From: a virus
Lineage: Duplodnaviria > Heunggongvirae > Uroviricota > Caudoviricetes
Strand: one strand, 5' to 3'
DNA length: 64,000 nt
IMG/VR virus record: IMGVR_UViG_3300042870_001427
Span: 100,147-164,146 of that record
Under the pieces are notes generated by a model, which had not been told where the DNA came from, did no database searches, and was given only the letters and a program-made list of their open reading frames with translations. This document shows, one piece after another, positions 3,828-62,726 of this stretch. How positions within the stretch are numbered: position 1 is the stretch's first letter; each line of letters begins with the position of its first letter. Both the position numbers and the translations under genes were made by a program.

Positions 3828-6764
3828 ATGGCAACAATAGGTAATTCATTAGCACCGTACTTCACCGCTACCACCTCTGATGTATTCAGTGCAAATGGTT
3901 CCGGTACTACGTTTACTTTAACCCGTAGTATTTCAAATCTGGTTGATATTGAAGTACTGGTTAACAATATTCAGCAAAACCCATTTAATGGTGCGTATTC
4001 AGTTAATGGTAATACACTAACATTTTCTGAGGCACCTTCGGTAGGTGCTAATAATGTATTAGTAAATTATAGACAGGCGGTAATTGGTTCTTCTATTCCA
4101 ACCCCTAATACTGTTGCCTCTATCTCCTTACAGCGTGATCTTACCCTTGGCGGTAATACTACATCTAACGGTACCATGTTTACCCAGGCCTTGGTACCAA
4201 CGGCCAACGTCACATACGATATCGGTACCAGTACTTTAAGATACAAAGATATTTACCTGAGTGGTGCAACTATTAATCTTGGTGATGTTAGTCTTTCGGC
4301 ATCAGGTAACACATTTACTGTTGCCAATAGTACCGGTGGTACTTTACCATCCAGTATGGGTAATACCACAATTACTGGTACGGCCAACGTAACCGGTGAT
4401 ATGACCATTGGCGGTAATTTGACTGTTACCGGCACAATGACCTATATTAATACCACCGATTTAAATATTGGTGATGCAATCATATCATTGAATGCCGATC
4501 TAGCTGCTAATATTGCACCAACCGAAGATGCAGGCATTAGTATTAACCGCGGTGCTAGTACTAACGCCCAGTTCAAATGGATCGAGTCAACAGATAATTG
4601 GTCACTAGGTAATACAACAATTAGCGGTATCTTAACTTCTAACGATCATGTTATTACAGGTACTGCTAACGTAAGCAGCGCTATTAACGTAGGTGCAAAC
4701 GTTAATTTAAGCACCAGCCAGATTAATGTCGGTAATAGCACTGTTAATACGGTTATATCATCCTCAGCATTAACCACAACATCCAATACTGCTACATTTG
4801 GTACAGCTGTTTATATTGCCGCTAATGGTAACTTGGGTATTGGGATAGGTTCCCCAAGTTATCGAGGTCACTTCAGATCTACAGGAACTTCGTCAATTGT
4901 ACGAGCAGATAGGTCTGAAAACAACTCGTTATATCTTGAAATAGGTGCAGATGGTAACGGCGGCGTGGTTAACGGAAGTCCTGCTGTGTTGTTTCAAACT
5001 ACTGGGACAGAGCGCGCACGTATTGACTCTAGCGGTAACTTGGGTGTTGGCACTACAGCTCCGACCACGAGACTTTCAATTAATACGTCCACACAAAATA
5101 GTGAAGCGGCAACTATTGGCGGTATTGATTATAGCGGTACAAAGCGCGGTTTATCTATTAGAACATATCAAAGTCTTGGTGGCGATGACTGTGGTGTAGA
5201 GTTTAATGCTGCCCCTAGTAACTCAGGGTACGGCGCTTTTAAGTTCAGTGCGGCAAACACTACTCTTGCAATCCTCTCTGCTAACGGTAACTTAGGTATT
5301 GGGACGAGTTCTCCAGCTCAATTAGTTGACGCATATAAATCTGCAAATGCTGACGTTGTTTATCAAATAACCAACGATAACAGCGGTAGTTCTGCAACAG
5401 CTCAATTTTTCGCAAGCAATGGTTCTACTAGAACACAATTCTTCCACACCGGAGGAAGCTACAGCGGCGCTGGCGTATTAGCGTCTGCTCCCGGTATCGG
5501 AGGTATTTACAATACTACGGCTCAAGGACTTGCGTTAATTTCTGCTCATGCTTCTGGTGTAATTAAATTTGCTACAGGCTCTTCCAACACAGAGCGTATG
5601 CGTATTGACTCCAGCGGTAACTTAAGAATGCCATGGGGCAGCGGTAAAATTTCTTGGTATTATGACGGAAGTTATGAGATGGGTTTAGCGACCGATGCTA
5701 GTTCCAGATCTTTGTATATAGATAATAAATCTAGTGACAGTGGTGGCGCTATTATTTTTCGCAATACAATAAATGGTACCCTGTCAGAAAAAATGAGCCT
5801 CGACTCCAGCGGTAACTTGACAGTTGCTGGTAATATTCGTAGTTTTGTATCACCTTCCGGTATTACTCTAAATGCCAATCAATACACAGATATAATGTAT
5901 ATTGGTGCTGGCGGATATGGATCAATAATGTCCGGTATTCTAACAGTATACAGTACATATTCTGGAGCTGTAACACAAAATAGTTATTTTGTTAATGCAA
6001 TTGGTAACGGTGGTGGTACTGGAATTACCATGCTTGCAAATGGTAATTATAGTTCTCCAGCCACTACTATTCTTTATGATAGGGGAAATGGCGTATTAGG
6101 TGGAGGTAGTCGTGTTATTTCTGTGTATAACGCAACTGGTACTACTATTGTTATTTCGTTTAGCTTTACCCCGGTAGGACAGTATAATTCTGCAGCTTTT
6201 TATACATCAGCCATTAATGGTGTAACTGCTGGAGCCGGTACTGGGGTTCCATCATCAGACCCAGTTTACTTTGGCCAAAACTACGCCCAAGTAAAAGCAG
6301 CTAATATTATATTTCCTAGCTCTCAATCAGCATCAACTGACGCAAACTGCTTGGATGATTATGAAGAGGGTAATTGGACTCCAAATTTAACGGGATCCAT
6401 TGGCGGCACTTATACAATGGGCGGTAGTAATAGTGGTCGGTATGTAAAAATTGGAAAGATGATATTTGTAACAGCAACAGTCCATTGGACTGCGGTGTCG
6501 GCAGGATATTCTGGAAACCTTGTTGTTAGCGGGCTTCCTTATCCCTGTGGAACAAATAGAGCAGCTGGTACTGTGGGTGCTGTGAGTAGTGGATTAACTT
6601 TTACGGCAGGATATGGCGAATGGCATATAGTAATTGATCCAAATCAATTTTTCATTTACGTCATACAAAGTTCAACAACAGGATCTGGTTACGCACACAA
6701 TCCAACAGTCGGTTCTTCTGGCCTTGTTTACTCTATATCCCTAGTTTATGAAGCAGGAGCATAA
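3828..6764 (+). CDS. Tail fibre protein, paralogue 2 (978 aa).
   Basis: It shares the module NVTGDMTIGGNLTVTGTMTYINTTDLNIGDAIISLNADLAANIAPTEDAGISINRGASTNAQFKWIESTDNWSLGNT with ORF 12824. It also has the NVGANVNLSTSQINVGNSTVNTVI repeat and RIDSSGNLG motifs. Confidence 0.7.
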   Translation: MATIGNSLAPYFTATTSDVFSANGSGTTFTLTRSISNLVDIEVLVNNIQQNPFNGAYSVNGNTLTFSEAPSVGANNVLVNYRQAVIGSSIPTPNTVASISLQRDLTLGGNTTSNGTMFTQALVPTANVTYDIGTSTLRYKDIYLSGATINLGDVSLSASGNTFTVANSTGGTLPSSMGNTTITGTANVTGDMTIGGNLTVTGTMTYINTTDLNIGDAIISLNADLAANIAPTEDAGISINRGASTNAQFKWIESTDNWSLGNTTISGILTSNDHVITGTANVSSAINVGANVNLSTSQINVGNSTVNTVISSSALTTTSNTATFGTAVYIAANGNLGIGIGSPSYRGHFRSTGTSSIVRADRSENNSLYLEIGADGNGGVVNGSPAVLFQTTGTERARIDSSGNLGVGTTAPTTRLSINTSTQNSEAATIGGIDYSGTKRGLSIRTYQSLGGDDCGVEFNAAPSNSGYGAFKFSAANTTLAILSANGNLGIGTSSPAQLVDAYKSANADVVYQITNDNSGSSATAQFFASNGSTRTQFFHTGGSYSGAGVLASAPGIGGIYNTTAQGLALISAHASGVIKFATGSSNTERMRIDSSGNLRMPWGSGKISWYYDGSYEMGLATDASSRSLYIDNKSSDSGGAIIFRNTINGTLSEKMSLDSSGNLTVAGNIRSFVSPSGITLNANQYTDIMYIGAGGYGSIMSGILTVYSTYSGAVTQNSYFVNAIGNGGGTGITMLANGNYSSPATTILYDRGNGVLGGGSRVISVYNATGTTIVISFSFTPVGQYNSAAFYTSAINGVTAGAGTGVPSSDPVYFGQNYAQVKAANIIFPSSQSASTDANCLDDYEEGNWTPNLTGSIGGTYTMGGSNSGRYVKIGKMIFVTATVHWTAVSAGYSGNLVVSGLPYPCGTNRAAGTVGAVSSGLTFTAGYGEWHIVIDPNQFFIYVIQSSTTGSGYAHNPTVGSSGLVYSISLVYEAGA

Positions 6765-6773
6765 AGGAAAAAA

Positions 6774-7025
6774 ATGTCAATAATTAAAACAACCTCAATT
6801 GATCAAATTACAGTCACCGAAAATGGCGGTGTTCTCTATCGTGAAGCTACACGCATAATTGAAGATGGAAACGAATTAAGTAAAACTTATCATCGTTCAA
6901 GTCTAATGCCAGGCCAAGACCTAACAGGTGTTCCGGATAATGTCGTTGCTATCTGCAATCTTACATGGACCCCAGAAGTCATTGCTGCCTACCAGGCACA
7001 AATTGCAGCCCCTTTCGGAACTTAA
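6774..7025 (+). CDS. Hypothetical small protein (83 aa).
   Basis: ORF with an AGGAAA ribosome-binding site upstream, lying between fibre genes. Confidence 0.4.
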   Translation: MSIIKTTSIDQITVTENGGVLYREATRIIEDGNELSKTYHRSSLMPGQDLTGVPDNVVAICNLTWTPEVIAAYQAQIAAPFGT

Positions 7026-7038
7026 ATAAATATAAACC

Positions 7039-9855
7039 ATGCCATACATAGGTAACCAACCGTTCGGAAAGACAGTACGAACAGTAACCACAGAAACAAT
7101 CACCAGTGTTAAAACTGCCTATTATCCAAACGGTGGATACATGGCCGGTTACGTTGACGTATATGTCAACGGGGTACGTCTATCAGAATCTTTAGACTTC
7201 ACCGCCACCGATGGTTCATTAGTCACCTTACTTTATTCACCAAGCATAGGGGATACGGTAGAAATAGTAACGTATGGGTCGGTAGAAATTGCCAATGCCG
7301 TCAGACGTTCAGGTGATACTTTTTCTGGTAACGTCTATGTTGGTTCCAATGTATACATTTCTACCAGCACCATCAGTGTCGGTAATGCTACCGTTAACAC
7401 CCAGATAACCGCCGGTAACATAGCCTTAAACGGCTCCACATTGACCATTGGTAACAGTACCGTCAATACCGTGTTTACCGGGGATACGGTGACTGTTGGT
7501 GGTACATTGAGTCTAGGTAACACCTCCATTACTGGGACGGCCAATGTAACTACAGCCATCAACGTCGGTGCAAACGTGTCTATGAATACTACCTCTATAC
7601 GGGTTGGTAATAGCACGGTCAACACCTACATTGTTTCCGATACCATTTACGGTCCTTCGACTCTTTACATTGATCCAGCCGCCGCCGGCGACAATACCGG
7701 TCTGGTTATAGTAAAAGGTGACTTACAGGTTGACGGTACGACATTTACTATCAATAGTGCCAACGTTACGGTTAACGATAAGAATGTAGTGTTGGCCAGT
7801 GGTGCTATTAATAATGCTGCCACCGATGGGGCCGGGCTTACTATTTTCGGCACCAATGCTAACCTGACGTATAATGCCACAGGTAACAACTTTGAAATGT
7901 CTCGTGGGTTAAGCATCACCGGGACGGCAAACGTTTCTGTTGGATTGAATGTAGGTGCTAATGTCAATTTAAGTACCAGTCAAATTAACGTCGGTAATAG
8001 TACGGTTAATACAGTTATATCAGCTGCTTCTCTAACCACTACCTCAAATACCGTTTCATTAGGCACAGCTGCATACGTCGTATCCAATGGTAATGTAGGT
8101 ATCGCGACGAATTCACCTGCTACAAAACTTCACGTATCAGGTGGCACTATTAGAAACTCTGGAACAAATGGTGTTTTGCAGTTGATGGATGGCAATGTCA
8201 CTGGCGGTGTAAAAATTGCATCATATAACCCTGCTGCTAGTGCTGATGGATATTTAGCCTTTGAAGGCTACACCATAGAATACGGTAGATTTAATTCCAG
8301 CGGTAACTTGGGTATTGGTACAAGTTCACCGGAGGATAGGCTTCATGCTGTAGCGGCAGTGGCAGCAGGGTTGTCATTGCAAGCAAGTGGTACTGGTGGT
8401 AGCACATGGAGAATTCTATCTACAGATAATGCTGCTAGTTTGGGCGGTGGATATCTTGGGTTTAATAATGGTAGTTATCGCATGGTGCTCGACTCCAGCG
8501 GTAACTTGGGTTTAGGTACTACAAGTCCATATTCAGCAGCGGGATATTCTTCGCTTACATTGAATAATACTACTGGTTCTCAAATTCGGATGCGTTCTAG
8601 CGGAACTGATATTGGTTTGATTTTCAATACCGCAAGTTCATTCAATGTTTATACCAGCGGCGCTATACCTTTAGTTCTTTCAACAAACGACACAGAACGA
8701 GCCCGTATTGACTCCAGCGGTAACTTGGGCTTGGGAACTACAACACCTTCAACTGGTAAATTTAGCGATGCGTCATATGCGTTTTTAATTCAATCTGCAA
8801 GTACAAGCACAGGAACTAATATTTTTGCCAGCAATTCTGATAACTCAAAATTTGTTGGCTTCTGGAGTGGTCATTCGGGGGCAGAGCCTGCAGTTGGGGT
8901 TAAGACTGGTAATGCGTTTACATTTGGTAAATGGGCTGCAATAAACGGGACTGGCGGTTTTACCGAAAATATGCGTATCGACTCCAGCGGCAACTTGAGT
9001 ATAGGTGGTTTTTCTCCTAATGCCTGGAGTACTGGATATAGAGCCATAAATTTATTCAGTTCTAATTCATTAGGCTTAGCTGGTTCAGATTATGGGTCGC
9101 AATTAACTAACAATTGTTATTATTCTGCTGCAAATGAGTGGACAAGAGTAGGTGCGTCATATGGTGCAGGTAGGTATGAGCAGTTTAATGGATACCATGC
9201 TTGGTACGGTAATGCCGCAGGCGCCGCGGGAGCATTTACTCCTACGTTTAATATGATCCTATCAACCGCTGGTTACTTAGGTATAGGTACGTCTAATCCT
9301 TCTGAAAAAATACATGTATACGGTACGGCAGCATCTGGAAGCAACCAAGGTCCTCGCATTAATTTACAATATTCCGGTACTTCCGGGGCTGCTGAATCAT
9401 TAATAAACTTTTTGGACTTTAGAGGTGCAGTAAACGCGGCTATAGGTAATAACTTACAAGATGATGGAGTTGGAACAGCGGCTGCCCATATGGTATTTAA
9501 AACTGCCGTTAGCGGTACATTATATGAGCGCATGCGCTTGGATACTAGCGGCCAATTACAATTTCCTCTAACTTCTCATGGTACAGCACAAATATCAAAC
9601 GTTTATTCTTTAAACGTTGCAAGTGGTGGTACTGTTGACTTTGCAAATTTTTCTGGAATGATTATTGTAAATAATTGGAATCAAGGTTCAGTTTCTTTGT
9701 GGATAGCTGGTGGGGGTACATATACGTTAGTAGCTGGTATTGCTGCCTATTATGGTAGTCTTAGTTTTACTTCTGGATTCTATAGATGGACTTCTAACGC
9801 ACCTTCAACTATGACCTATACCTTTACGGCCATTCGCACCCGTACTAACGCATAA
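7039..9855 (+). CDS. Tail fibre protein, paralogue 3 (938 aa), with a repeated [MR]IDSSGNLG[IL]GTxSP motif.
   Basis: It shares the GTANVSVGLNVGANVNLSTSQINVGNSTVNTVISAASLTTTSNTVSLGTAAYV module with ORFs 3828 and 10208. The SSGNLG motif recurs more than 6 times. Confidence 0.7.
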   Translation: MPYIGNQPFGKTVRTVTTETITSVKTAYYPNGGYMAGYVDVYVNGVRLSESLDFTATDGSLVTLLYSPSIGDTVEIVTYGSVEIANAVRRSGDTFSGNVYVGSNVYISTSTISVGNATVNTQITAGNIALNGSTLTIGNSTVNTVFTGDTVTVGGTLSLGNTSITGTANVTTAINVGANVSMNTTSIRVGNSTVNTYIVSDTIYGPSTLYIDPAAAGDNTGLVIVKGDLQVDGTTFTINSANVTVNDKNVVLASGAINNAATDGAGLTIFGTNANLTYNATGNNFEMSRGLSITGTANVSVGLNVGANVNLSTSQINVGNSTVNTVISAASLTTTSNTVSLGTAAYVVSNGNVGIATNSPATKLHVSGGTIRNSGTNGVLQLMDGNVTGGVKIASYNPAASADGYLAFEGYTIEYGRFNSSGNLGIGTSSPEDRLHAVAAVAAGLSLQASGTGGSTWRILSTDNAASLGGGYLGFNNGSYRMVLDSSGNLGLGTTSPYSAAGYSSLTLNNTTGSQIRMRSSGTDIGLIFNTASSFNVYTSGAIPLVLSTNDTERARIDSSGNLGLGTTTPSTGKFSDASYAFLIQSASTSTGTNIFASNSDNSKFVGFWSGHSGAEPAVGVKTGNAFTFGKWAAINGTGGFTENMRIDSSGNLSIGGFSPNAWSTGYRAINLFSSNSLGLAGSDYGSQLTNNCYYSAANEWTRVGASYGAGRYEQFNGYHAWYGNAAGAAGAFTPTFNMILSTAGYLGIGTSNPSEKIHVYGTAASGSNQGPRINLQYSGTSGAAESLINFLDFRGAVNAAIGNNLQDDGVGTAAAHMVFKTAVSGTLYERMRLDTSGQLQFPLTSHGTAQISNVYSLNVASGGTVDFANFSGMIIVNNWNQGSVSLWIAGGGTYTLVAGIAAYYGSLSFTSGFYRWTSNAPSTMTYTFTAIRTRTNA

Positions 9856-9864
9856 GGAATTAAT

Positions 9865-10167
9865 ATGGAATACAAAAAAGTAAAAATTGACGGGCAACAG
9901 AATCACTTTGAAATTACCGTAGAAAAAGACGGCAAAGAAATTACATTTATTGCAGCCGTTGCATCTGAAGACCAATTGGATGAAGTTGTTCAATATCATT
10001 TGGATTCACTAGATAAACCAATCCCTGTATACACTCCTACCTACAGTGACTTACGTAGGTCAGAATACCCATCGTTTGCCGATCAATTTGATTTGCTGTA
10101 TCACGGCGGCTATGATGAATGGAAGGCAGCCATTGATACTATTAAAGCAAGATATCCTAAACCTTAA
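9865..10167 (+). CDS. Hypothetical protein (100 aa).
   Basis: ORF with a GGAAT ribosome-binding site, lying between fibre genes. Confidence 0.4.
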   Translation: MEYKKVKIDGQQNHFEITVEKDGKEITFIAAVASEDQLDEVVQYHLDSLDKPIPVYTPTYSDLRRSEYPSFADQFDLLYHGGYDEWKAAIDTIKARYPKP

Positions 10168-10207
10168 TTAACACTCTAGTTGACACCAACAACGATAAAT
10201 AACCAAA

Positions 10208-12784
10208 ATGACAAGAGCAAGAAACGTATCAAACCCCCAGGCAATTGACATACCTTTAACGGTATCGGCCAATCTTACTGCCAACGCCGTCATTACTGTA
10301 GGCAACTCCTCTGTAAACTCTGTCATTTCGTCTAATACGTACAGTATAGGCTCAAACGTCAGTCTAAACACATCCAGGTTATTCTTAGGCAACAGCACAG
10401 TTAATTCGGTGCATACTGCGTCCACATTAGACGTTGGTGCCAATGTTAACCTGAGTACTGTGGGCCTGAACGTCGGCAGTAATACCGTCAACGCCTATAT
10501 TAATTCTACATCTTTCGCCATCGGTAACAGTACGGTTAATACCGCCATTACTTCTACCACTATTACCAGTACGGCTTTACTGTCTATAGGTAATACAAAC
10601 GTTACAGGTACTGCTAACGTAAGTACAGGTATTAACGTCGGAGCCAACGTTAATCTTAGCACCAGTCAGATTAATGTCGGTAACAGTACAGTTAATACAG
10701 TCATATCAGCTGCCTCTTTAACCACAACCTCAAACACTGTTTCATTAGGCACTGCAGCATATGTTGTTGCTAACGGTAATGTAGGTGTTAATACAAGTTC
10801 CCCAGGATCTAAATTAGATATTTTAAGGTCAAGCACAACTACTGCCGTTTTTGATGAATCCCTAATTCGTGCAATCAACACCGGTGCGGCTACACTTAAT
10901 CAGCGTGTTGACATTGGAATGCGCTTTCAAGATGGTACCTATAACGGTATAGGTGGCATTTCCATGATTCGAGAATCTGCTACAGCCCGTTCTGGTGGGT
11001 TATCATTCTCTTCAATAGGCAGCGATGGTAATCCTACTAACGCCATGCGCCTTGATTCCAGCGGTAACTTGGGTATTGGGACTACTTCGCCTTCTGCCAA
11101 CTATGGACGTCTTACCGTATCTGGGACAGGTATTACCATTACTGCAGATACTTCTGCAAAATTACAAATTGGCAGATATGGTGAAGGCGCACCATTTAGC
11201 TACATTAAGATGGGGTCAACATCGTCTGGATTAAAAATTACAGACCCTACAGATTCATATGATTTAATGACTATTACTTCTGCAGGTAACTTGGGTGTAG
11301 GAAACACAAGCCCCTCCTACAAACTTGAAGTTACGGGTACGGCGCATATAAGCAGTTATGCATATATTGATAGTTTAGTTTCTGGATACATTCCACATAC
11401 CGGGGTTATCGGGTGGGGGTATACTGTAGGCGGTTCTCAAACTATTGCAAAACTTAAATGGGGTAGTTATGGTCGTATACAGCATACAAGTTTTGGTAAT
11501 ATACCGTTCTTAAGTTTTAATGCAGAACTCTATGAATCAGATTTTACCGGTAGTGGGTCGGGTCAATCAAACCGTAATTATTTTAGACCAGATTATAATT
11601 TAGGTCAGTATGCTATCTTATCTCACGGTAATGGAGGAGTTGCTTTTAATGTTGGAAATTGGTCTAGCAATAATTCTATTAGTTTAAGCGCTTTTAGTGA
11701 CCATACCAGTTATGCCGGTGGCGTGCTGCCAACCGGTAATTGGGAGATTAAAAATAGCATTGGTATAGGAACTAATACCCCTGATGCAAAATTATCTATT
11801 ATATCTGAAGCCGGCGGCGGGCCTATGCTTCAGATACGTAACTTTAGTACAACTGCAACAGGTGCATTTTTAGGAACATACGCAGCAGAGTTAAGAACTG
11901 CATCAACTGGTGCAACTGTACATGGAGTTAGAATTCATTTAAATGAAGCTAATAATGATAGAAGAACTCTAGATGTAGCGGATTATAATGGTGTTTTTGC
12001 CACCTTTGTTAACGGTAACGTAGGAATTGGTACTGTCTATCCCAGTACAAAATTAACAGTTGCTAAAGTTATTGATTCAGCTGCATATGGTTCTGGTACA
12101 AGAATGATTGATTTCAAATCATTCTACCCAGGATATGACGTTGATACGGTTAAAGCCTCATTGTATGCCGGGGTAGATAATACAGGCACCTTAAATACTG
12201 CCTCAGGCTATTTTGCAATTCAAACATCGCTAGCTGGTACATTGTATGAGCGCTTGCGTATTAACTCTCTTGGTAACGTATTAATAGGTACTACTACCAC
12301 TACAGACGCTAACCAAGCATTGCTTGTTCTTCAGTCATCTTATCCTAAGACTCGCATGGAGATTCGGAATGACGGACAAACTGCAGGTCTATACGCTATA
12401 ACATTTTATAATGCTAATGGACTTATAGGGAACATTACCCCAGGAGGCTCTGGAACTGCATATAATACAACCTCTGATTACCGATTAAAACGTGATGTGC
12501 AACCAATGACAGGTGCACTTACAAAAATACTAGCCATTAAGCCTGTGACATATAAGTGGAAAGCAGACGGCTCTGACGGCCAAGGGTTTATTGCTCACGA
12601 ATTGGCTGAAGTTTGTCCTGATGCTGTGACAGGAGTAAAGGATGAAGTAAATGAAGACGGGGCAATCAAACCTCAAGGTGTTGACACTTCATTCTTGGTA
12701 GCTACATTGACAGCTGCCATCCAAGAACAACAAGCCCTCATCACCCAATTACAGGCAGAAGTTGCCGAACTGAAATCTAGATAA
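10208..12784 (+). CDS. Tail fibre protein, paralogue 4 (858 aa), with a C-terminal intramolecular-chaperone, self-cleaving (peptidase S74-like) domain.
   Basis: The C-terminus reads YRLKRDVQPMTGALTKILAIKPVTYKWKADGSDGQGFIAHELAEVCPDAV...IQEQQALITQLQAEVAELKSR, typical of the endosialidase/tail-fibre chaperone domain. The shared fibre module lies upstream. Confidence 0.75.
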   Translation: MTRARNVSNPQAIDIPLTVSANLTANAVITVGNSSVNSVISSNTYSIGSNVSLNTSRLFLGNSTVNSVHTASTLDVGANVNLSTVGLNVGSNTVNAYINSTSFAIGNSTVNTAITSTTITSTALLSIGNTNVTGTANVSTGINVGANVNLSTSQINVGNSTVNTVISAASLTTTSNTVSLGTAAYVVANGNVGVNTSSPGSKLDILRSSTTTAVFDESLIRAINTGAATLNQRVDIGMRFQDGTYNGIGGISMIRESATARSGGLSFSSIGSDGNPTNAMRLDSSGNLGIGTTSPSANYGRLTVSGTGITITADTSAKLQIGRYGEGAPFSYIKMGSTSSGLKITDPTDSYDLMTITSAGNLGVGNTSPSYKLEVTGTAHISSYAYIDSLVSGYIPHTGVIGWGYTVGGSQTIAKLKWGSYGRIQHTSFGNIPFLSFNAELYESDFTGSGSGQSNRNYFRPDYNLGQYAILSHGNGGVAFNVGNWSSNNSISLSAFSDHTSYAGGVLPTGNWEIKNSIGIGTNTPDAKLSIISEAGGGPMLQIRNFSTTATGAFLGTYAAELRTASTGATVHGVRIHLNEANNDRRTLDVADYNGVFATFVNGNVGIGTVYPSTKLTVAKVIDSAAYGSGTRMIDFKSFYPGYDVDTVKASLYAGVDNTGTLNTASGYFAIQTSLAGTLYERLRINSLGNVLIGTTTTTDANQALLVLQSSYPKTRMEIRNDGQTAGLYAITFYNANGLIGNITPGGSGTAYNTTSDYRLKRDVQPMTGALTKILAIKPVTYKWKADGSDGQGFIAHELAEVCPDAVTGVKDEVNEDGAIKPQGVDTSFLVATLTAAIQEQQALITQLQAEVAELKSR

Positions 12785-12823
12785 AAGGACATTGATAGTC
12801 CACCAACAACGATAAATAAAAAC

Positions 12824-14746
12824 ATGGCCTTAGACAAAGTACTATCATCTTCGATTGCAAACGGCGCCGTTACTGCCGCCCTAATTTCTAACACCGCCAA
12901 CTTGGTGGTTAGTTCACTAACGGCCAACGTAATCACGATCACCACCATCAGTGGGTCGGCCAACGTTACCGGTGATATGACTGTTGGTGGCAATCTTACT
13001 ATATCAGGCACCACCACATATGTCAACACCACCGATTTAAACATTGGTGATGCAATCATATCTTTGAATGCCGATTTAGCAGCCAATGTGGCACCTACTG
13101 AAAATGCCGGTTTAAATATTAACCGAGGTGCCAGCACAAACGCTCAATTTGTATGGGTAGAGTCTACCGATAATTGGTCTTTGGGTAATACCAGTATTGG
13201 TGGTACCTTAGCAACTACTTCTAATACAGTCACCCTAGGAACTGCTGCATACTTTGTAGCTAACGGTAATGTAGGAATGGGTACTGATTCACCAGCTTAT
13301 AGATTAGATGTTAATGGTGATTTAAAAGTTGTAAACGCTGTTCGTTATTTTGTTGGCGCCACTCAATATGGTGTTACATTTGCCAACGCAGGTGCAGTAG
13401 GAACTGAAGCATATCAAGGAACATATATTTATTGGGGCACCGGAGCTAGTACATCTGCAACAGAACGCATGCGCCTTGATGCTAGTGGTAACTTGGGATT
13501 GGGTGTTACGCCTAGTACCTCAACATCTAATTATCGAACTTTGCAAATTGGCGGTTCTGCAAAATTTAGTATTTTTGGGCAGCGAGTTGGTGGCGCTTGT
13601 GAAACCTTGGTTGGATGGAATATCTATGGCGGCAGTAATACCACAACTGTTGGTACAGGTTATTACTACACAAACACAGGCGATGCCGCAACTTTATACA
13701 CTCAGACCGATAATCATCGTTGGTGGATAGCTCCCTCAGGTACAGCAGGAGCAAACGTTGCCTTCACCCAAGCAATGACCCTTGATGCAAGCGGTAACTT
13801 AGTTGTTGGAAATTCTACTGCGTGGTCACGCTTTCATGTTACTAAGTCAGTAAACAACACTAATACGGCAGCTACTAATATTACAGATTATCAAAATGCC
13901 GCATTTATCCTGCATAATCAAGATGATGCGGGTACCGGTAATAAAGCAGGCATGTTTTTTGCCTTTGCAGGCTCACCCGGTCTGTTAGCAGGAATGGACG
14001 GATATAAGGTAAGTGGCACCTGGGATACAGGTCTTCGTTGGTATACTAATAATCAAACAGGTGGTAACACTGGCACGTTATATGAACGTATGCGTATTGC
14101 TCCCGATGGCAGGGTGGGTATTGGTGTTACCTCACCTACTTGGAAGCTAGAAGTTGAAGGAAACCAAGAATCGCTGGCGTCATTTAGACCAAGTTCTAAT
14201 ACCAGTGCTGGATATGCTCGATTTATCAATGGAGGTGGCACATTCTATATAGGGATAGATTCTTCTACTGGTGGTAGAATCTCTGGGTCCGGGCTTGCTT
14301 ATGCTGCCTCTATGACTACCGAGGGAAATACAGCACTGACGTTTGGTACTAATAATACTAACCGTATGACCATTGACACTACCGGTCAATTGCTGGTAGG
14401 GACTACAACATCTGCGGGTGCTGTATCCAATACCAAAAGAATAGTTGGTGGATCATTTAGTTCGTTTAATGGTGTATTAAATTCAGTAAGCAGTGGTGTC
14501 GCATACACATTGTTTACCATGACTGCTGACTTTACATCTTATATGGTTACAGTTTCTGCTTTAGTTTCTACTGCGGCTTATTCAGAAACTGCAATAGTCC
14601 ATTTAAACAATACCTCCGTAAATGTAATAGTAATTGCTGGGGGGTCTGCTATTGCAATCCAAAATACAGGTATGGCTGTACAAGTTGTGCAAAGTTCAGG
14701 TGCAACAGTATCAGAGTTATTATGGTCTGCAATGCGAATAACTTAA
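12824..14746 (+). CDS. Tail fibre protein, paralogue 5 (640 aa).
   Basis: It shares the N-terminal module (NVTGDMTVGGNLTISGTTTYVNTTDLNIGDAIISLNADLAANVAPTENAGLNINRGASTNAQF) with ORF 3828. It also has ERMRLDASGNLG repeats. Confidence 0.65.
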   Translation: MALDKVLSSSIANGAVTAALISNTANLVVSSLTANVITITTISGSANVTGDMTVGGNLTISGTTTYVNTTDLNIGDAIISLNADLAANVAPTENAGLNINRGASTNAQFVWVESTDNWSLGNTSIGGTLATTSNTVTLGTAAYFVANGNVGMGTDSPAYRLDVNGDLKVVNAVRYFVGATQYGVTFANAGAVGTEAYQGTYIYWGTGASTSATERMRLDASGNLGLGVTPSTSTSNYRTLQIGGSAKFSIFGQRVGGACETLVGWNIYGGSNTTTVGTGYYYTNTGDAATLYTQTDNHRWWIAPSGTAGANVAFTQAMTLDASGNLVVGNSTAWSRFHVTKSVNNTNTAATNITDYQNAAFILHNQDDAGTGNKAGMFFAFAGSPGLLAGMDGYKVSGTWDTGLRWYTNNQTGGNTGTLYERMRIAPDGRVGIGVTSPTWKLEVEGNQESLASFRPSSNTSAGYARFINGGGTFYIGIDSSTGGRISGSGLAYAASMTTEGNTALTFGTNNTNRMTIDTTGQLLVGTTTSAGAVSNTKRIVGGSFSSFNGVLNSVSSGVAYTLFTMTADFTSYMVTVSALVSTAAYSETAIVHLNNTSVNVIVIAGGSAIAIQNTGMAVQVVQSSGATVSELLWSAMRIT

Positions 14747-57929: not shown

Positions 57930-58114
57930 TGAACACAGAAGATGACTACTATGATGGTGATATGAGTGATGCAGAATATCGCCAGAGAATTAAGCGAGAG
58001 GAAGAATCTGAACGATATTATGCCCATCAGCGAGAGTTATACAAACAAAAACAATCATCTAATAAGGTCTACTATTCACCTTCTGAGAATGAAGATAGTG
58101 GGAGTATGTGGTGA
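57926..58114 (+). CDS. Cargo gene: acidic/Tyr-rich small protein (62 aa).
   Basis: ATGATGA coupling. Confidence 0.35.
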   Translation: MMNTEDDYYDGDMSDAEYRQRIKREEESERYYAHQRELYKQKQSSNKVYYSPSENEDSGSMW

Positions 58115-58371
58115 ACGAACGAATTAAAGAACTTGCTGAACAGGCTACATCAATTGTAGAAATGGTAGGACCCGAAGGTTATACCAGCAGTTATGCCAAC
58201 TTTGATAGGGAAAAGTTCGCCGAGTTGATTGTGAAGGAATGTTTAGCACATGGTAAGTTGACTCAATCACAGGCAGTGGTGAACGGATCAGAAGAATATA
58301 ATGCTGGCAGAGAGATGGGCATTGAAGTTTTTATGAATCAGATTAAACTACATTTTGGAGTTGAAGAATGA
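58108..58371 (+). CDS. Array member A4 (VNERIKELAEQ…KFAELIVKEC…LHFGVEE); GTG start.
   Basis: Family signature. Confidence 0.5.
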   Translation: MVNERIKELAEQATSIVEMVGPEGYTSSYANFDREKFAELIVKECLAHGKLTQSQAVVNGSEEYNAGREMGIEVFMNQIKLHFGVEE

Positions 58372-58574
58372 ACGAACGAATTGAAAAACTTGCTGAACAA
58401 TGCTATCATCGGTACAGTGTGCACTACATTGATTTAGAAAAGTTCGCCGAGTTGATTGTGAAAGAATGTGCCAAGTCTTTGTGGACCGAAGAATGCCATA
58501 ACAGTGACCTGGCATTAGAAGAATTTGAAAGAAACAGTGCTAAGATTAAAGAACATTTCGGAGTTGATGAATGA
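58368..58574 (+). CDS. Array member A5 (MNERIEKLAEQC…KFAELIVKEC…EHFGVDE).
   Basis: Family signature. Confidence 0.55.
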   Translation: MNERIEKLAEQCYHRYSVHYIDLEKFAELIVKECAKSLWTEECHNSDLALEEFERNSAKIKEHFGVDE

Positions 58575-58759
58575 ACGAACAAGATAAACTATGGATTGAT
58601 AATGCATCCTATGAGGATCTGCTACGTAAATGGCGGTACGCTCCTTTGGGGGACCATATGCTCCAGGGCGAAACTGGTGAGTATTTTAGTAAGGTCATGT
58701 TTGCAAAGAAGAAGAATTGTGACCATGTTCAGGCATCAAAGAATGTAGGTTGGGAATGA
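58571..58759 (+). CDS. Cargo gene sharing only the junction codons (MNEQ… …VGWE).
   Basis: Its body is unrelated, flanked by GAATGAACGAAC and GGGAATGAACAAACGA junctions. Confidence 0.4.
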   Translation: MNEQDKLWIDNASYEDLLRKWRYAPLGDHMLQGETGEYFSKVMFAKKKNCDHVQASKNVGWE

Positions 58760-58965
58760 ACAAACGACTAGAACAACTTGCTGAACTAGCTACTGATATA
58801 GTAGAAACGGTAAACCCACAAGGCTATACCAGCAGCTATGCAAAATTTGACCGTGAAATGTTTGCCCTGTTGATTATTCGGGAATGTGCTGACTTCTTGA
58901 AAGATACAATGGATGATCATTTTGCAGCAGAGCAGTTATTGGAACTTTTCGGAGTTGATGAATGA
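58756..58965 (+). CDS. Array member A6 (MNKRLEQLAELA…MFALLIIREC…ELFGVDE).
   Basis: Family signature. Confidence 0.5.
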   Translation: MNKRLEQLAELATDIVETVNPQGYTSSYAKFDREMFALLIIRECADFLKDTMDDHFAAEQLLELFGVDE

Positions 58966-59138
58966 ATAAAATGATTTTAGCTTTTGCTGTTGTATTTTTG
59001 CTATTCTTTTACGGTATCAAAGCCGTTAGAGAATTGACCGGAAAAGAAATGTTAGGTTTGGTAAAGCTCTTGACTTACAGTGCAGGTTGTGCTATAATTA
59101 CCATTGTTAGTTTAGTCTCCCTTGTGATACTTTTTTAA
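58962..59138 (+). CDS. Cargo gene: small 2-TM membrane peptide (58 aa) with an embedded promoter.
   Basis: MNKMILAFAVVFLLFFYG… The motif TTGACT-N18-TATAAT at 59070-59099 lies inside the ORF. Confidence 0.35.
   Translation: MNKMILAFAVVFLLFFYGIKAVRELTGKEMLGLVKLLTYSAGCAIITIVSLVSLVILF
59070..59099 (+). promoter_or_regulatory. Sigma70-like promoter upstream of the SPFH lipoprotein gene.
   Basis: cTTGACTtacagtgcaggttgtgcTATAATtacc. Confidence 0.45.
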
Positions 59139-59144
59139 GGATGT

Positions 59145-59942
59145 ATGATGAAAAAATTTGCTCTTACTGGTTTGGTTGTTGCTTCAATTCTCGCCTCGGG
59201 TTGTACCCGTATCGAAACGGGTGAAGTAGGTGTCCGTGTTGGCTTTGACAAACAGGTCCAGCAAGGTGAACTTTTGCCAGGTTCCTTCAATCAGGTACTG
59301 ATCGGTGATGTTCTTACATTCCCTATCAAGGACGTTAATGTCAAACTAGATGACATGACCCCGGTGGCTAAAGATAACAGCACCATGAAAGACTTTGATG
59401 CCGTGGTCATCTATAACATTAATCAGGCCCAGGTTGCCGAACTATACAGCCAAAAGAGCCAGGCATTCCATGCCCGCCATAACGGCGACATCTACTTGAT
59501 GTATAACTACATGGTTCAAACCACCCGTAATGCCATCTACAAAGAAGCCCGTAAGTACGAGGCGCTAGACATGGCCGATAGTCGTCAAGCTATGGAACAG
59601 GCCATCAAAGAACAAATTCAAAAGAGTTTGGCCGACGAAAAGCTTGACGGTAGTCTAATGGTTGGTCAAGTGTTGATTCGTAACATTGTGCCTGCAGACT
59701 CTGTGGTTGCTAGTGCAAACGAATTGGTTCGTGCCAAGAATGAATTGAAACAAAAAGAAGTTGAAGTAAAGACTGCTAAGATGGAGGCTGAACGTATGCA
59801 GGCTTTGAGCAACCAAGGTGCCCAGAGCATTGCTTACATGCAGGCCCAGGCTATGATGAATATCTCAGAAGGTATCAAGAACGGTCGTGTGCAAACGATT
59901 GTTGTGCCTGCAAACTTCAATGCGCTGATGCTGCAAAAATGA
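59145..59942 (+). CDS. SPFH/band-7 (stomatin-prohibitin-HflK/C-like) lipoprotein.
   Basis: Signal peptide with lipobox LASGC. The SPFH core GEVGVRVGF… is followed by an Ala/Glu-rich coiled-coil tail. AAGGA ribosome-binding site upstream. Confidence 0.6.
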   Translation: MMKKFALTGLVVASILASGCTRIETGEVGVRVGFDKQVQQGELLPGSFNQVLIGDVLTFPIKDVNVKLDDMTPVAKDNSTMKDFDAVVIYNINQAQVAELYSQKSQAFHARHNGDIYLMYNYMVQTTRNAIYKEARKYEALDMADSRQAMEQAIKEQIQKSLADEKLDGSLMVGQVLIRNIVPADSVVASANELVRAKNELKQKEVEVKTAKMEAERMQALSNQGAQSIAYMQAQAMMNISEGIKNGRVQTIVVPANFNALMLQK

Positions 59943-60166
59943 ACGAACGAATTAAAGAACTTTGGTCGCAGGCTGGAGGTCACTATGATAGCGGCAATCA
60001 GCACACTTGGCCACAATATACAATTGACGATCCAGAAAGGTTCGCCGAGTTGATTGTTCGAGAATGTTTAGACATTGTAAATAGGAAAGAGTATAGTTAT
60101 CATGAGACCGACCCACTTTGGGAAACAGCACAATTGATTAAAGAACATTTCGGAGTTGAAGAATGA
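59939..60166 (+). CDS. Array member A7 (MNERIKELWSQ…RFAELIVREC…EHFGVEE).
   Basis: Family signature. Confidence 0.55.
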   Translation: MNERIKELWSQAGGHYDSGNQHTWPQYTIDDPERFAELIVRECLDIVNRKEYSYHETDPLWETAQLIKEHFGVEE

Positions 60167-60333
60167 ACATACTGATTAGGATTCTACATACTATACCGTT
60201 TGTACATTTCTATGATAAATGGTCTGATACCGGAACTTGTTCTGGTTATGATGGTGAAGAACGCCAGCAAAGATTCTGTATTATCTGCAATAAGAAACAA
60301 TACCGTACCATAACCAATAGTCCCATAATCTGA
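60163..60333 (+). CDS. Cargo gene: small Cys-containing protein (56 aa).
   Basis: Flanked by junction sequences; below the track cut-off. Confidence 0.3.
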   Translation: MNILIRILHTIPFVHFYDKWSDTGTCSGYDGEERQQRFCIICNKKQYRTITNSPII

Positions 60334-60336
60334 CAA

Positions 60337-60594
60337 ATGAACGAACGAATTAAACAACTTGCTATCGAAGCCAGGCTACTAACTGGGTGGCCAGTAGGTG
60401 AAGTCGAGTATCAAAAGTTCGCCGAGTTGATTGTGCAGGAATGTATTGGCATTTTAGAGGCAGAGATTGAATTAGAAAAAGGATATAAATCTACTGCCTG
60501 TAATGACTTTGATGTCCGCTGGCATCAAGGTAAGATCGAACACTTTGCCAAACTGGTAGAAAAGAGTAAGAAACATTTCGGAGTTGAAGAATGA
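60337..60594 (+). CDS. Array member A8 (MNERIKQLAIEA…KFAELIVQEC…KHFGVEE).
   Basis: Family signature. Confidence 0.55.
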   Translation: MNERIKQLAIEARLLTGWPVGEVEYQKFAELIVQECIGILEAEIELEKGYKSTACNDFDVRWHQGKIEHFAKLVEKSKKHFGVEE

Positions 60595-60779
60595 ACGAAC
60601 GAATTCAGGAACTTTGGGAACAAGCTGTTCGGGGTGATGGACCCCATGCATCAGTGATTGCAGATTTCGCTGAGTTGATTGTTCAGGAATGTATTGACAT
60701 TGCCCGCGATGAAGAAGGCCATTCGCCTTTCGAGGGTCCTGTAGAAACTAAGATTAAACAACATTTCGGAGTTAAATGA
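60591..60779 (+). CDS. Array member A9 (MNERIQELWEQ…FAELIVQEC…QHFGVK).
   Basis: Family signature. Confidence 0.55.
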   Translation: MNERIQELWEQAVRGDGPHASVIADFAELIVQECIDIARDEEGHSPFEGPVETKIKQHFGVK

Positions 60780-60979
60780 TGATTAAAGTTGGAGCCACAA
60801 CCTTTGTACTGCTGATTGCCCTAGCCCTTCTTGCCCCCTTTGCATACCTGTGGGCTTTGAATACTCTGTTCCCAGTACTAGAACTTGAGTACAGCTTTGT
60901 TAACTATATCGCCATCTGTCTGGTACATGCATTCCTACGTGCTGATATAGGTATAAGAAAAAATGAACGAACAGATTAA
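60776..60979 (+). CDS. Cargo gene: 2-TM membrane protein (67 aa).
   Basis: TM segments TTFVLLIALALLAPFAYLWAL and YIAICLVHAFL are present. Confidence 0.4.
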   Translation: MMIKVGATTFVLLIALALLAPFAYLWALNTLFPVLELEYSFVNYIAICLVHAFLRADIGIRKNERTD

Positions 60980-61184
60980 ACTATTCGCCGAACAAGCCGG
61001 CTTTATGATGTGGGAAGATGAACCGTGGAATCCCGGGGACGTAGTTGACTGGAGTGCACGCTATGATACTGAACTGGAAAAGTTTGCTAACATGATTATA
61101 TTCGAATGTTTCAAGCTGGCAGTATTCAATGGTAATCACGTAACAGCAAAAGCAATCAAAGAACATTTTGGAGTTGGAGAATGA
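60963..61184 (+). CDS. Array member A10 (MNEQIKLFAEQ…KFANMIIFEC…EHFGVGE).
   Basis: Family signature (diverged). Confidence 0.5.
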   Translation: MNEQIKLFAEQAGFMMWEDEPWNPGDVVDWSARYDTELEKFANMIIFECFKLAVFNGNHVTAKAIKEHFGVGE

Positions 61185-61549
61185 AAGTAGTGATCAACGG
61201 TGACTTCGGGGGCTTTAGCCTTTCGGATGAGGCATTTGAAAAGTTTTTACATCGTAAGGGCATTGCCTGGGAGAAGAGTATCAACAAATATGATATGATG
61301 GATTACTACCATGCCCGCCACCTCGATAGTGATGAACATTATTTGGCCCAGCATGAAGTTTTGCATAACCGGGCCGATCCCGATCTGGTGGCAGTGGTGG
61401 AGGAGATGGGCCATAAAGCCAATGGTCAGTATGCCAATCTGGTGATTGTGGAGATACCTGACGACGTTCAATGGCACCTGGCCGAATACGATGGCGTTGA
61501 ACATATTGCCGAAAACCACAGAACCTGGGGGCCAGGATATGAGCCTTGA
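61181..61549 (+). CDS. Hypothetical protein (122 aa).
   Basis: Coupled to A10 (GAATGAAAG). Confidence 0.45.
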   Translation: MKVVINGDFGGFSLSDEAFEKFLHRKGIAWEKSINKYDMMDYYHARHLDSDEHYLAQHEVLHNRADPDLVAVVEEMGHKANGQYANLVIVEIPDDVQWHLAEYDGVEHIAENHRTWGPGYEP

Positions 61550-62307: not shown

Positions 62308-62726
62308 GAGCAGAACTAGATAGGGAGCTTTGTGAAAAGTATCCTAAGATGATGGTCAACCGTCATAAAGATATGAAGGAGACCACCATGTGCTGGGGCT
62401 TTGAAGTTGGTGATGGATGGTATAACATCATTAGAAATCTTATGAGCCAGATCCAACATCATATTGATTGGAAAAACCGAGACAGTGAAGTTGTTCAGCA
62501 AGTCACACTTGACCAGGTCAAAGAAAAATTTGGTACCCTTCGTTTCTATTATACCGGGGGCGATGACCGTATTCGTGGCATGGTGACTATGGCAGAGGCT
62601 ATGTCCGCCGTTACCTGTGAGGTGTGCGGGAATGCAGGTAAGTTCCGAGGCCGGAACTGGTATTATACCTCTTGTGAGGAACATGCCAGGGAAGAAGATA
62701 AACTCCCAGTGGAAAATATGTCTTGA
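62304..62726 (+). CDS. Hypothetical Cys-containing protein (140 aa).
   Basis: Coupled ORF containing CEVCGN…CEEH. Confidence 0.45.
   Translation: MRAELDRELCEKYPKMMVNRHKDMKETTMCWGFEVGDGWYNIIRNLMSQIQHHIDWKNRDSEVVQQVTLDQVKEKFGTLRFYYTGGDDRIRGMVTMAEAMSAVTCEVCGNAGKFRGRNWYYTSCEEHAREEDKLPVENMS

Follow-up and report, generated by a model that had tools for sequence, protein, structure and literature searches.

The 64,000-nucleotide stretch analysed here (the window; positions 100,147 to 164,146 of the IMG/VR virus record IMGVR_UViG_3300042870_001427) belongs to a T4-like myophage, as genes for the large terminase, sheath, portal, major head protein, a UvsW-like helicase, and gp46-like proteins are present. 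Its open reading frame (ORF) at 59145-59942 on the plus strand codes for an SPFH/band-7 lipoprotein of 265 amino acids (aa), and directly upstream lies a gene for a 58-aa membrane hairpin, which carries a sigma-70-type promoter inside its coding sequence. The phage SPFH lipoprotein type is itself known; what is new is the anatomy of the module, namely a conserved hairpin-SPFH pair with an embedded promoter. The features of the locus, in window coordinates, are the following:

58962..59138, plus strand: membrane-hairpin gene, upstream partner of the SPFH gene; ORF of 58 aa, MNKMILAFAVVFLLFFYGIKAVRELTGKEMLGLVKLLTYSAGCAIITIVSLVSLVILF
59070..59098, plus strand: sigma-70-type promoter with extended -10 element (TTGACT, 17 nt, TGcTATAAT), inside the hairpin gene
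59137..59141, plus strand: Shine-Dalgarno element AAGGA, read from the sequence; overlaps the hairpin stop codon TAA at 59136-59138
59145..59942, plus strand: SPFH/band-7 lipoprotein gene, 265 aa or 264 aa, from profile matches and the structural model
59145..59204, plus strand: signal peptide and lipobox, aa 1-20; Cys20 codon at 59202-59204
59223..59690, plus strand: SPFH alpha/beta core, aa 27-182, from Pfam (22-214), AlphaFold, and Foldseek
59697..59879, plus strand: two long A/E/Q/K-rich helices, CC1 (aa 185-223) and CC2 (aa 226-245), from AlphaFold
59880..59939, plus strand: C-terminal tail ending in GRVQTIVVPANFNALMLQK, with the conserved 'TIVVP' strand motif, from the alignment and the stomatin match

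An alternative in-frame ATG at 59148 gives a protein of 264 aa, the length at which gene callers frequently report the database copies, and it is better spaced from the AAGGA element, which stands 3 or 6 nt ahead of the two candidate start codons. The gene on the 3' side overlaps the SPFH stop codon (ATGA at 59939). The SPFH gene is single, and the small genes that flank it are unrelated to SPFH. A chance ORF was considered and rejected in view of the thousands of conserved homologues.

Family and fold of the SPFH protein

The first-pass annotation of this locus had proposed a phage-encoded SPFH/band-7 protein, and the profile comparison put forward with it bears this out. Specifically, the protein matches Pfam Band_7 (PF01145) over residues 22-214 with 62.8 bits (E 5.6e-17; curated cut-off 23.6 bits) and PHROG 200, annotated as 'lipoprotein', over residues 1-239 (E 2.4e-31), and it is encoded among phage genes. 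The likeness to HflK/C, YqiK, and QmcA that was also claimed stands at the level of the superfamily and falls at that of the subfamily. The NCBIfam scan returned only an insignificant match to Phr_nterm and none to the HflK/HflC equivalog models, and the single sequence found nothing among the PDB sequences with phmmer. The family profile retrieves from the same sequences stomatin (4e-8), prohibitin (1.5e-5), and HflK (3e-5 to 1e-4, with a match spanning residues 7-224 at about 1e-4); these matches are weak, and the one to HflK is not better than those to stomatin or prohibitin.

The AlphaFold2 monomer model, computed from an 81-sequence alignment (predicted local distance difference test, pLDDT, 89.5; predicted template modelling score, pTM, 0.75), consists in order of a signal helix, an alpha/beta core (27-182), two helices (185-223 and 226-245) that correspond to the C-terminal coiled-coil announced by the first-pass annotation, and a C-terminal tail. 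Foldseek retrieves 57 PDB matches at E<=1e-3, the top ones being all full-length SPFH subunits (PHB1/2, HflK/C, stomatin, erlin, QmcA-YbbJ, and flotillin) with probability 1.0 over 240-300 aligned columns; HflK/C chains hold ranks 2 and 5, QmcA is found at E 4.5e-9, and the identity to every SPFH subfamily is only 12-19%. The helices CC1 and CC2 align with the wall helices of the prohibitin, HflK/C, stomatin, erlin, and QmcA cages, and the C-terminal 'TIVVP' motif aligns with the C-terminal 'tivfP' segment of stomatin, with P255 invariant in alignment A2. In the monomer model the tail is coil, and the pLDDT is low at its very end. The protein is a full-architecture SPFH subunit, about equidistant from all characterised subfamilies, and its assembly into a cage or ring is expected by analogy with these homologues. 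It is not an orthologue of HflK/C, QmcA, or YqiK, and NCBIfam gives no match of this type.

A phmmer search against 1.84 billion representative sequences returned 320 clusters at E<=1e-3, nearly all of 260-290 aa when complete, and this limited number together with the uniform length delineates a small, distinct lipoprotein clade. The window copy belongs to a very abundant uncultured freshwater clade, with 5298 clusters at E<=1e-5 in a large protein collection; a search with a diverse 8-sequence profile recovered largely these near relatives again and contributed little more. No family among the PADLOC defence profiles matched the SPFH protein at E<=1.

Signal peptide and lipobox

The N-terminus, MMKKFALTGLVVASILASG followed by the lipobox cysteine, has Lys3 and Lys4 in the n-region, a hydrophobic core of 13 residues, and A-S-G-C20 at the cleavage site. 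The lipobox signal (LASGC) read by the first-pass annotation is thus present on re-analysis, and it satisfies the PROSITE-type rule, with a permissive, non-canonical Ala at position -3. Cys20 never varies in alignment A2 and is conserved to at least 90% in alignment A3, and the mature N-terminus CTRIETGEVG is nearly invariant across the family. A lipobox is found in 71 of the 83 full-length representatives of the 50%-identity clusters, and most of the other 12 begin with a hydrophobic N-terminal stretch. On these grounds the protein is predicted to be lipidated. The residue that follows the lipobox Cys is Thr, and none of the 71 lipobox-bearing representatives has Asp there.

The hairpin partner

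The first-pass annotation had treated the small ORF that precedes the SPFH gene as one more gene of a cassette array, a view that does not survive the comparison with related loci. Of 78 viral-contig loci, whose SPFH proteins are 73-95% identical to the window copy, nearly all have an ORF of 58 aa with the C-terminus V[VI]LF at 3-13 nt ahead of the SPFH gene, and this ORF is a conserved membrane-hairpin partner. The family comprises 55 distinct nucleotide sequences, with M1, I19, R23, G27, K28, E29, W31, K35, Y39, S40, V55, and F58 conserved, and its search in the large protein collection yielded 208 clusters at E<=1e-3, nearly all of exactly 58 aa among the matches listed. AlphaFold predicts a helix-turn-helix (helices 2-25 and 31-57; pLDDT 74), and, by the positive-inside rule, the Lys/Arg-rich turn would be cytoplasmic.

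Pfam and PHROG scans of the window hairpin gave no match. With six analogous phage hairpins added, Pfam again returned nothing, NfeD (PF01957) included, so that an NfeD identity was rejected, and the sole PHROG match was that of the Kuttervirus hairpin to phrog_11680, a family of unknown function.

The pairing holds in both directions. The reverse look-up from the hairpin found three divergent homologues in eight places, each directly followed by a Band_7 gene of 264-265 aa, and such hairpin-first pairs occur in three unrelated neighbourhoods. As a baseline, a small ORF with two transmembrane (TM) segments stands directly upstream of only 2 of the 58 larger genes of the window; therefore, the hairpin-SPFH association is far from chance. 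Moreover, the blastn similarity of the window to the other loci is confined to the pair (58962-59943), and the flanks are unrelated.

Some relatives of the pair carry additional elements. An insert of about 86 nt separates the hairpin and SPFH genes in L004 (5916-6000) and L183 (2187-2273) and codes for a single-TM micro-ORF of 28-31 aa, e.g., MINDFWLRPLYFAMGFVVCFYLFSTGVI; a similar insert is found in L022, L038, L040, L049, L075, L080, L083, and L086, and none in the window. On a 370-kb contig (L185/L186, 978-1640 and 3018-3293), the pair is flanked by a gene with a Gad2 (anti-Gabija) domain, and also by a protein with a prepilin-type N-methylation motif and a D-Ala-D-Ala carboxypeptidase. 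A phage-type pair, with a 58-aa hairpin ending in IVILF and an SPFH gene, is also found on a 38-kb contig labelled as a Candidatus Saccharibacteria metagenome-assembled genome (L132), which may in fact derive from a phage and have been binned with a bacterium.

A promoter inside the hairpin gene

The promoter embedded in the hairpin gene consists of TTGACT (59070-59075), a 17-nt spacer, and TATAAT (59093-59098), with a TG at 59090-59091; it scores 11/12 plus the TG extension, and the inferred transcription start is near 59105. The exact arrangement TTGACT-N17-TATAAT occurs eight times in the window, where 0.01 occurrences are expected, always on the plus strand and always between 51 and 64 kb. 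The seven other sites (51202, 52187, 52851, 53671, 54912, 62723, and 63945, all on the plus strand) share the spacer TT[AT]ATT[AT]CGG.ATAT..AC and are a phage-specific early-promoter family. The spacer of the SPFH-gene promoter, TACAGTGCAGGTTGTGC, is unlike theirs, because this promoter is located in coding sequence.

Comparison of the hairpin genes confirms the promoter that the first-pass annotation had placed in the preceding ORF. In 36 of the 55 distinct relatives, a site with a 17-nt spacer and a score of 10/12 or higher is found at one of two fixed registers (nucleotide 97 or 109 of the ORF), and nine of these sites are perfect. The choice of codons at the positions of the hexamers is strongly biased. 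Specifically, Leu33 is encoded by TTG in 33 of 36 cases, against a background of 26% (p 7e-15), Ser40 by AGT in 35 of 43 (p 5e-9), and Ile41 by ATA in 23 of 27 (p 6e-14); such values, from 1e-7 to 1e-15, are optimistic because the sequences share kinship, and the direction of the bias is clear. As judged from these comparisons, the promoter is selected beyond the needs of the protein sequence. A similarly placed promoter is present in an independent Acinetobacter T4-like lineage (Bhz15, L172), and none was found inside the hairpin gene in the Kuttervirus, N4-like, and cyanophage versions of the pair.

The description of this promoter as dedicated holds in part: it serves the SPFH gene, but not exclusively, because the next gene overlaps the SPFH stop codon and no terminator-like site is found on the plus strand between that overlap (59939) and the next strong promoter at 62723.

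The T4-type late motif TATAAATA is distributed differently. It occurs at 3380, 14853, 19404, 19429, 26115, and 27121, all on the plus strand, just ahead of structural genes such as those of the sheath and the major head protein; the number of sites alone is not above chance, and their placement is the notable part. The motif scan of the window found none at the SPFH gene. As the early promoters are restricted to 51-64 kb and the late motifs to 3-27 kb, the SPFH region is assigned to the early genes.

The pair in cultured and more distant phages

Beyond the close relatives, 12 contexts from cultured phages and viral contigs were compared, in which the SPFH protein is 24-64% identical to the window copy. 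An analogous hairpin is found in 11 of them, the exception being Herod, and the phages with the pair include Kuttervirus CBA120, Bue1, and Acinetobacter T4-like, N4-like, Obolenskvirus, and cyanophage representatives. The two-TM ORF directly upstream of the SPFH gene ranges from 53 to 93 aa (BUCT-ZZ01, 58 aa; Bhz15, 90 aa; SilasIsHot gp55, 72 aa; CBA120 orf127A, 69 aa; Erwinia phage Bue1, 64 aa and uncalled; nACB1, 85 aa; Bphi-R2919, 83 aa; S-CREM1, 53 aa; B3, 54 aa; also L172 and L173). BLASTP found no similarity between the window hairpin and that of BUCT-ZZ01, and the pairing in this phage is therefore based on position, size, and topology, not on homology.

The sequence distance is large throughout. 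A megablast search of 58000-61500 against phage genomes gave no match, while tblastn against phage records gave, for 191 of the 193 matching records, alignments of 24-46% identity that cover at least 95% of the length, and the nearest cultured-phage SPFH protein is only 46% identical to the window copy. Scans of viral sequences with the single Bhz15 and BUCT proteins yielded only two and four loci, respectively.

A gene annotated as 'superinfection exclusion', with a soluble product of 106 aa, stands beside the pair in Kuttervirus (L180, 975-1295, CBA120 orf127; L008, 1975-2295), and a gene with the same annotation is located about 1 kb downstream of the pair in Bue1 (L179, 2924-3144).

SPFH ORFs were tabulated in the T4-like phages 44RR, Aeh1, and RB43 in 2006, and in that table 44RR ORF097c, with an N-methylation motif, adjoins the SPFH gene ORF098c (PMC1524935). 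Literature on SPFH proteins in an anti-phage, superinfection exclusion, or phage-encoded context was found to consist of genome-annotation mentions only, and no paper in the searchable, incomplete library describes the hairpin partner or the embedded promoter.

Chromosomal homologues and origin

When prokaryotic species were scanned with one genome each, chromosomal homologues came to light that have the mature N-terminus CTRIETGEVG and 51-69% identity to the window protein. Those of Bdellovibrio and Bacteriovorax are 66-69% identical, and the many Burkholderiales homologues, including Polaromonas, Rhodoferax, Aquabacterium, Massilia, and Roseateles, 51-58%. At the two loci inspected, the neighbours are housekeeping genes and not prophage genes. 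In the Roseateles/Mitsuaria group, a 60-aa two-TM ORF lies upstream of the SPFH homologue. The SPFH gene is probably of cellular origin, since members of the lipoprotein clade are also encoded on the chromosomes of Bdellovibrio and Burkholderiales.

Phage, Bdellovibrio, and Burkholderiales copies are 62-68% identical to each other, and the copies of Comamonadaceae and Oxalobacteraceae 91-94% (L116, L123, and L131, i.e., Polaromonas, Rhodoferax, and Undibacterium). These cross-group identities point to horizontal movement of the gene and suggest a recent transfer of the SPFH lipoprotein among freshwater bacteria. The Bdellovibrio copies are 62-67% identical to those of Polaromonas, Rhodoferax, and Undibacterium.

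Other genes of the window

Ten small paralogues of 62-96 aa occupy both sides of the SPFH pair between 56610 and 61184 on the plus strand; they share the motifs MNERIKELAEQ at the N-terminus, FAELIV.EC in the middle, and HFGV[ED]E at the C-terminus, and several overlap the next gene by ATGA. The two of these 'MNERIKEL' paralogues that were scanned gave no match in Pfam and PHROG. Within the array, downstream of the SPFH gene, a further small membrane ORF of 67 aa (60776-60979, plus strand) is hydrophobic over its N-terminal two-thirds. Far from the pair, a run of four large paralogous fibre ORFs (978, 938, 858, and 640 aa; 3828-14746, plus strand) all match the tail-fibre PHROGs 18345 and 9942.

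Proposed function and alternatives

Electron cryo-microscopy has recently shown SPFH proteins as closed cages over membrane patches. To our knowledge, every full-length SPFH protein with a solved structure builds a closed, ring- or dome-shaped assembly on a membrane and encloses client membrane proteins. Against this background, the locus is read as a two-gene early envelope module in which an SPFH dome probably has the hairpin as its resident or adaptor, a reading that is given a probability of about 0.45. The product of the first gene (58962-59138) would be a 58-aa hairpin in the inner membrane, whose turn is cytoplasmic and whose two ends lie on the periplasmic face, and the product of the second (59145-59942) would be exported and lipid-anchored. 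Its two long helices and C-terminal strand are expected to join its chains into a closed, ring- or dome-shaped structure on the membrane, on the periplasmic side as for HflK/C, and the hairpin of this dome would be the minimal equivalent of the NfeD or FtsH clients that the cellular SPFH cages have. The internal promoter, in the 3' half of the hairpin gene, would add SPFH transcription on top of the read-through and raise SPFH relative to the hairpin, which fits a cage of many subunits around few clients. The module would most probably isolate or stabilise a patch of the host envelope early in infection, e.g., for immunity to secondary infection or for the protection of membrane integrity. Either of these two roles is suggested by the early timing, the envelope location, the hypervariable region, the 'superinfection exclusion' neighbours, and the Gad2-domain gene in one relative.

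A stronger version is possible, though doubtful: the pair would be an unrecognised and widespread phage envelope system, in which a periplasmic SPFH cage corrals the hairpin as a gate, pore, or immunity determinant and controls the passage through the inner membrane early in infection, e.g., by excluding competitor DNA or neutralising membrane-attacking defence effectors.

Several observations weigh against the envelope-module reading. In E. coli, a lipoprotein that lacks Asp after the lipidated Cys is sorted to the outer membrane, and by this rule the Thr of the window protein, in a family that never has Asp at this position, would place the SPFH protein apart from the inner-membrane hairpin. 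The hairpin is missing from most of the bacterial homologue loci, and therefore the SPFH protein can work alone. Moreover, the hairpins are on average 41% identical to the window copy and the SPFH proteins 86%, with a correlation of 0.43, and this faster divergence of the hairpin is unlike what would be expected from tight co-evolution. Furthermore, 19 of the 55 relatives have no good internal promoter. Lastly, the role of SPFH proteins in phages has been stated as unknown (PMC7760394, PMC13239085). The roles raised by the first-pass annotation, namely modulation of FtsH, blocking of superinfection, and countering of defences, gain no direct support from these papers or from the PADLOC scan.

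The first of these points is central to an alternative that appears unlikely overall, in which the protein is an outer-membrane lipoprotein that acts alone at the inner face of that membrane, e.g., by masking a receptor or stabilising the outer membrane in the way of T5 Llp or Cor, with the hairpin a separate early membrane protein that is linked genetically only. The 'superinfection exclusion' genes found beside the pair in Kuttervirus and close to it in Bue1 fit this alternative, and so would a prophage HflK/C-like protein of 25-35 kDa in outer-membrane vesicles of Pasteurella multocida (PMC9872710), if it is homologous to this clade. Conversely, the SPFH gene and a hairpin of inner-membrane type are tightly paired, whichever of the two the search starts from, Pfam and PHROG give no similarity to the Llp or Cor families, and the space between peptidoglycan and outer membrane would have to accommodate a dome of 12-26 subunits. 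In addition, the sorting rule applied is that of E. coli; the Lol-avoidance rules vary among bacterial groups, and the host may follow a different one. That the partner is of the inner-membrane type, and that HflK/C offer an analogy, instead favour the inner membrane as the site of the SPFH protein.

The same analogy can be taken further, along the lead of the first-pass annotation, to a mimic of HflK/C whose periplasmic SPFH ring captures or displaces the host FtsH, either alone or with the hairpin as an FtsH-modulating peptide, and alters FtsH proteolysis. HflK/C cages enclose FtsH hexamers, the signal peptide makes the window protein periplasm-facing like HflK/C, and HflK/C are among its best Foldseek matches and are reached by the family profile. 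This mimicry is nonetheless quite improbable, because HflK/C are no nearer to the protein than prohibitin or stomatin are, and because it lacks an NCBIfam HflK/HflC match and has a lipid anchor instead of an N-terminal TM helix and one gene instead of the HflK and HflC pair.

The chromosomal homologues open a further, similarly improbable explanation without any role in conflict, in which the phage resupplies a cellular envelope lipoprotein after host shut-off and so keeps the envelope intact until lysis. The housekeeping contexts of these homologues (Bdellovibrio, Polaromonas, Rhodoferax, Massilia, and Roseateles), the strong conservation of the mature protein among phages (73-96%), and the G+C content of the SPFH gene, slightly above that of its flanks, are compatible with such a host-derived auxiliary gene. 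However, the phage copies gained a partner gene that most bacterial copies lack, they are located in a hypervariable early region amid small genes typical of host take-over, and the bacterial homologues are themselves without an assigned function.

A virion-associated or entry factor that aids adsorption or DNA entry, as proposed for phage GIB1 (PMC13239085), is highly improbable. In its favour, a few SPFH peptides have been detected when virions of a Vi01-like phage (3 spectra) and of Erwinia jumbo phages were analysed. However, these trace counts are compatible with membrane contamination, the promoter is of the sigma-70 early type in an early region without the late motif, and the Sec/lipoprotein signal exports the protein from the cytoplasm, where capsids are assembled. 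A spanin or holin role was rejected in view of the early promoter and the absence of both a C-terminal TM segment and a late motif.

With this analysis, what had been only an annotation becomes a defined unit of two genes that is portable and contains a promoter, and exact counterparts in tractable phages, namely CBA120 orf127A-orf126 (E. coli O157) and the Acinetobacter T4-like phages, make knockout, localisation, and structural work straightforward. If the cage does corral the hairpin, the pair would be a viral minimal analogue of the FtsH-HflK/C and NfeD-SPFH assemblies, spread over T4-like, Vi1-like, N4-like, and Obolenskvirus phages, cyanophages, and freshwater viromes. If it is an exclusion or membrane-protection device, it would represent a new class among the systems of phage-phage and phage-defence conflict, and would also offer a simple homo-oligomeric model of how an SPFH cage handles a client.

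Comparison with known systems

The closest known proteins are the annotated phage SPFH lipoproteins of CBA120 (orf126), Vi01, SFP10, the Acinetobacter phages AbTZA1, Herod, and nACB1, and the Synechococcus phages BUCT-ZZ01 and S-CREM1, which have in common with the window copy the PHROG 200 family, a length of about 260-275 aa, the lipobox, and a small two-TM ORF upstream; the window copy differs from them by the strict 58-aa hairpin type with an internal promoter. The chromosomal SPFH lipoproteins of Bdellovibrio/Bacteriovorax and Burkholderiales are also alike in length, lipobox, and CTRIETGEVG terminus, but, unlike the phage pair, they mostly stand alone in housekeeping neighbourhoods.

T4 Imm and Sp and T5 Llp are early small inner-membrane or periplasmic/lipoprotein products by which virulent phages exclude superinfection. 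The pair resembles them in timing and location only, and neither Pfam nor PHROG reveals any sequence or profile similarity between them.

Among the cellular systems, E. coli HflK/HflC-FtsH likewise has periplasmic SPFH domains and the same order of anchor, SPFH core, two wall helices, and C-terminal strand, whereas the identity is 15-17%, and the window protein has a lipid anchor in place of the TM helix and one gene in place of two paralogues. The SPFH-NfeD operons (QmcA-YbbJ, PDB 8z5g; YqiK-YqiJ; Pyrococcus PH1511-PH1510) also combine an SPFH gene with the gene of a small membrane protein, which in the solved QmcA-YbbJ complex sits under the cage. In contrast, the phage partner is merely a 58-aa hairpin without an NfeD/OB-fold domain, and QmcA faces the cytoplasm, while the window SPFH protein has the signal peptide of an exported one. 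The resemblance to the SPFH-NfeD systems is therefore one of operon organisation and not of partner homology.

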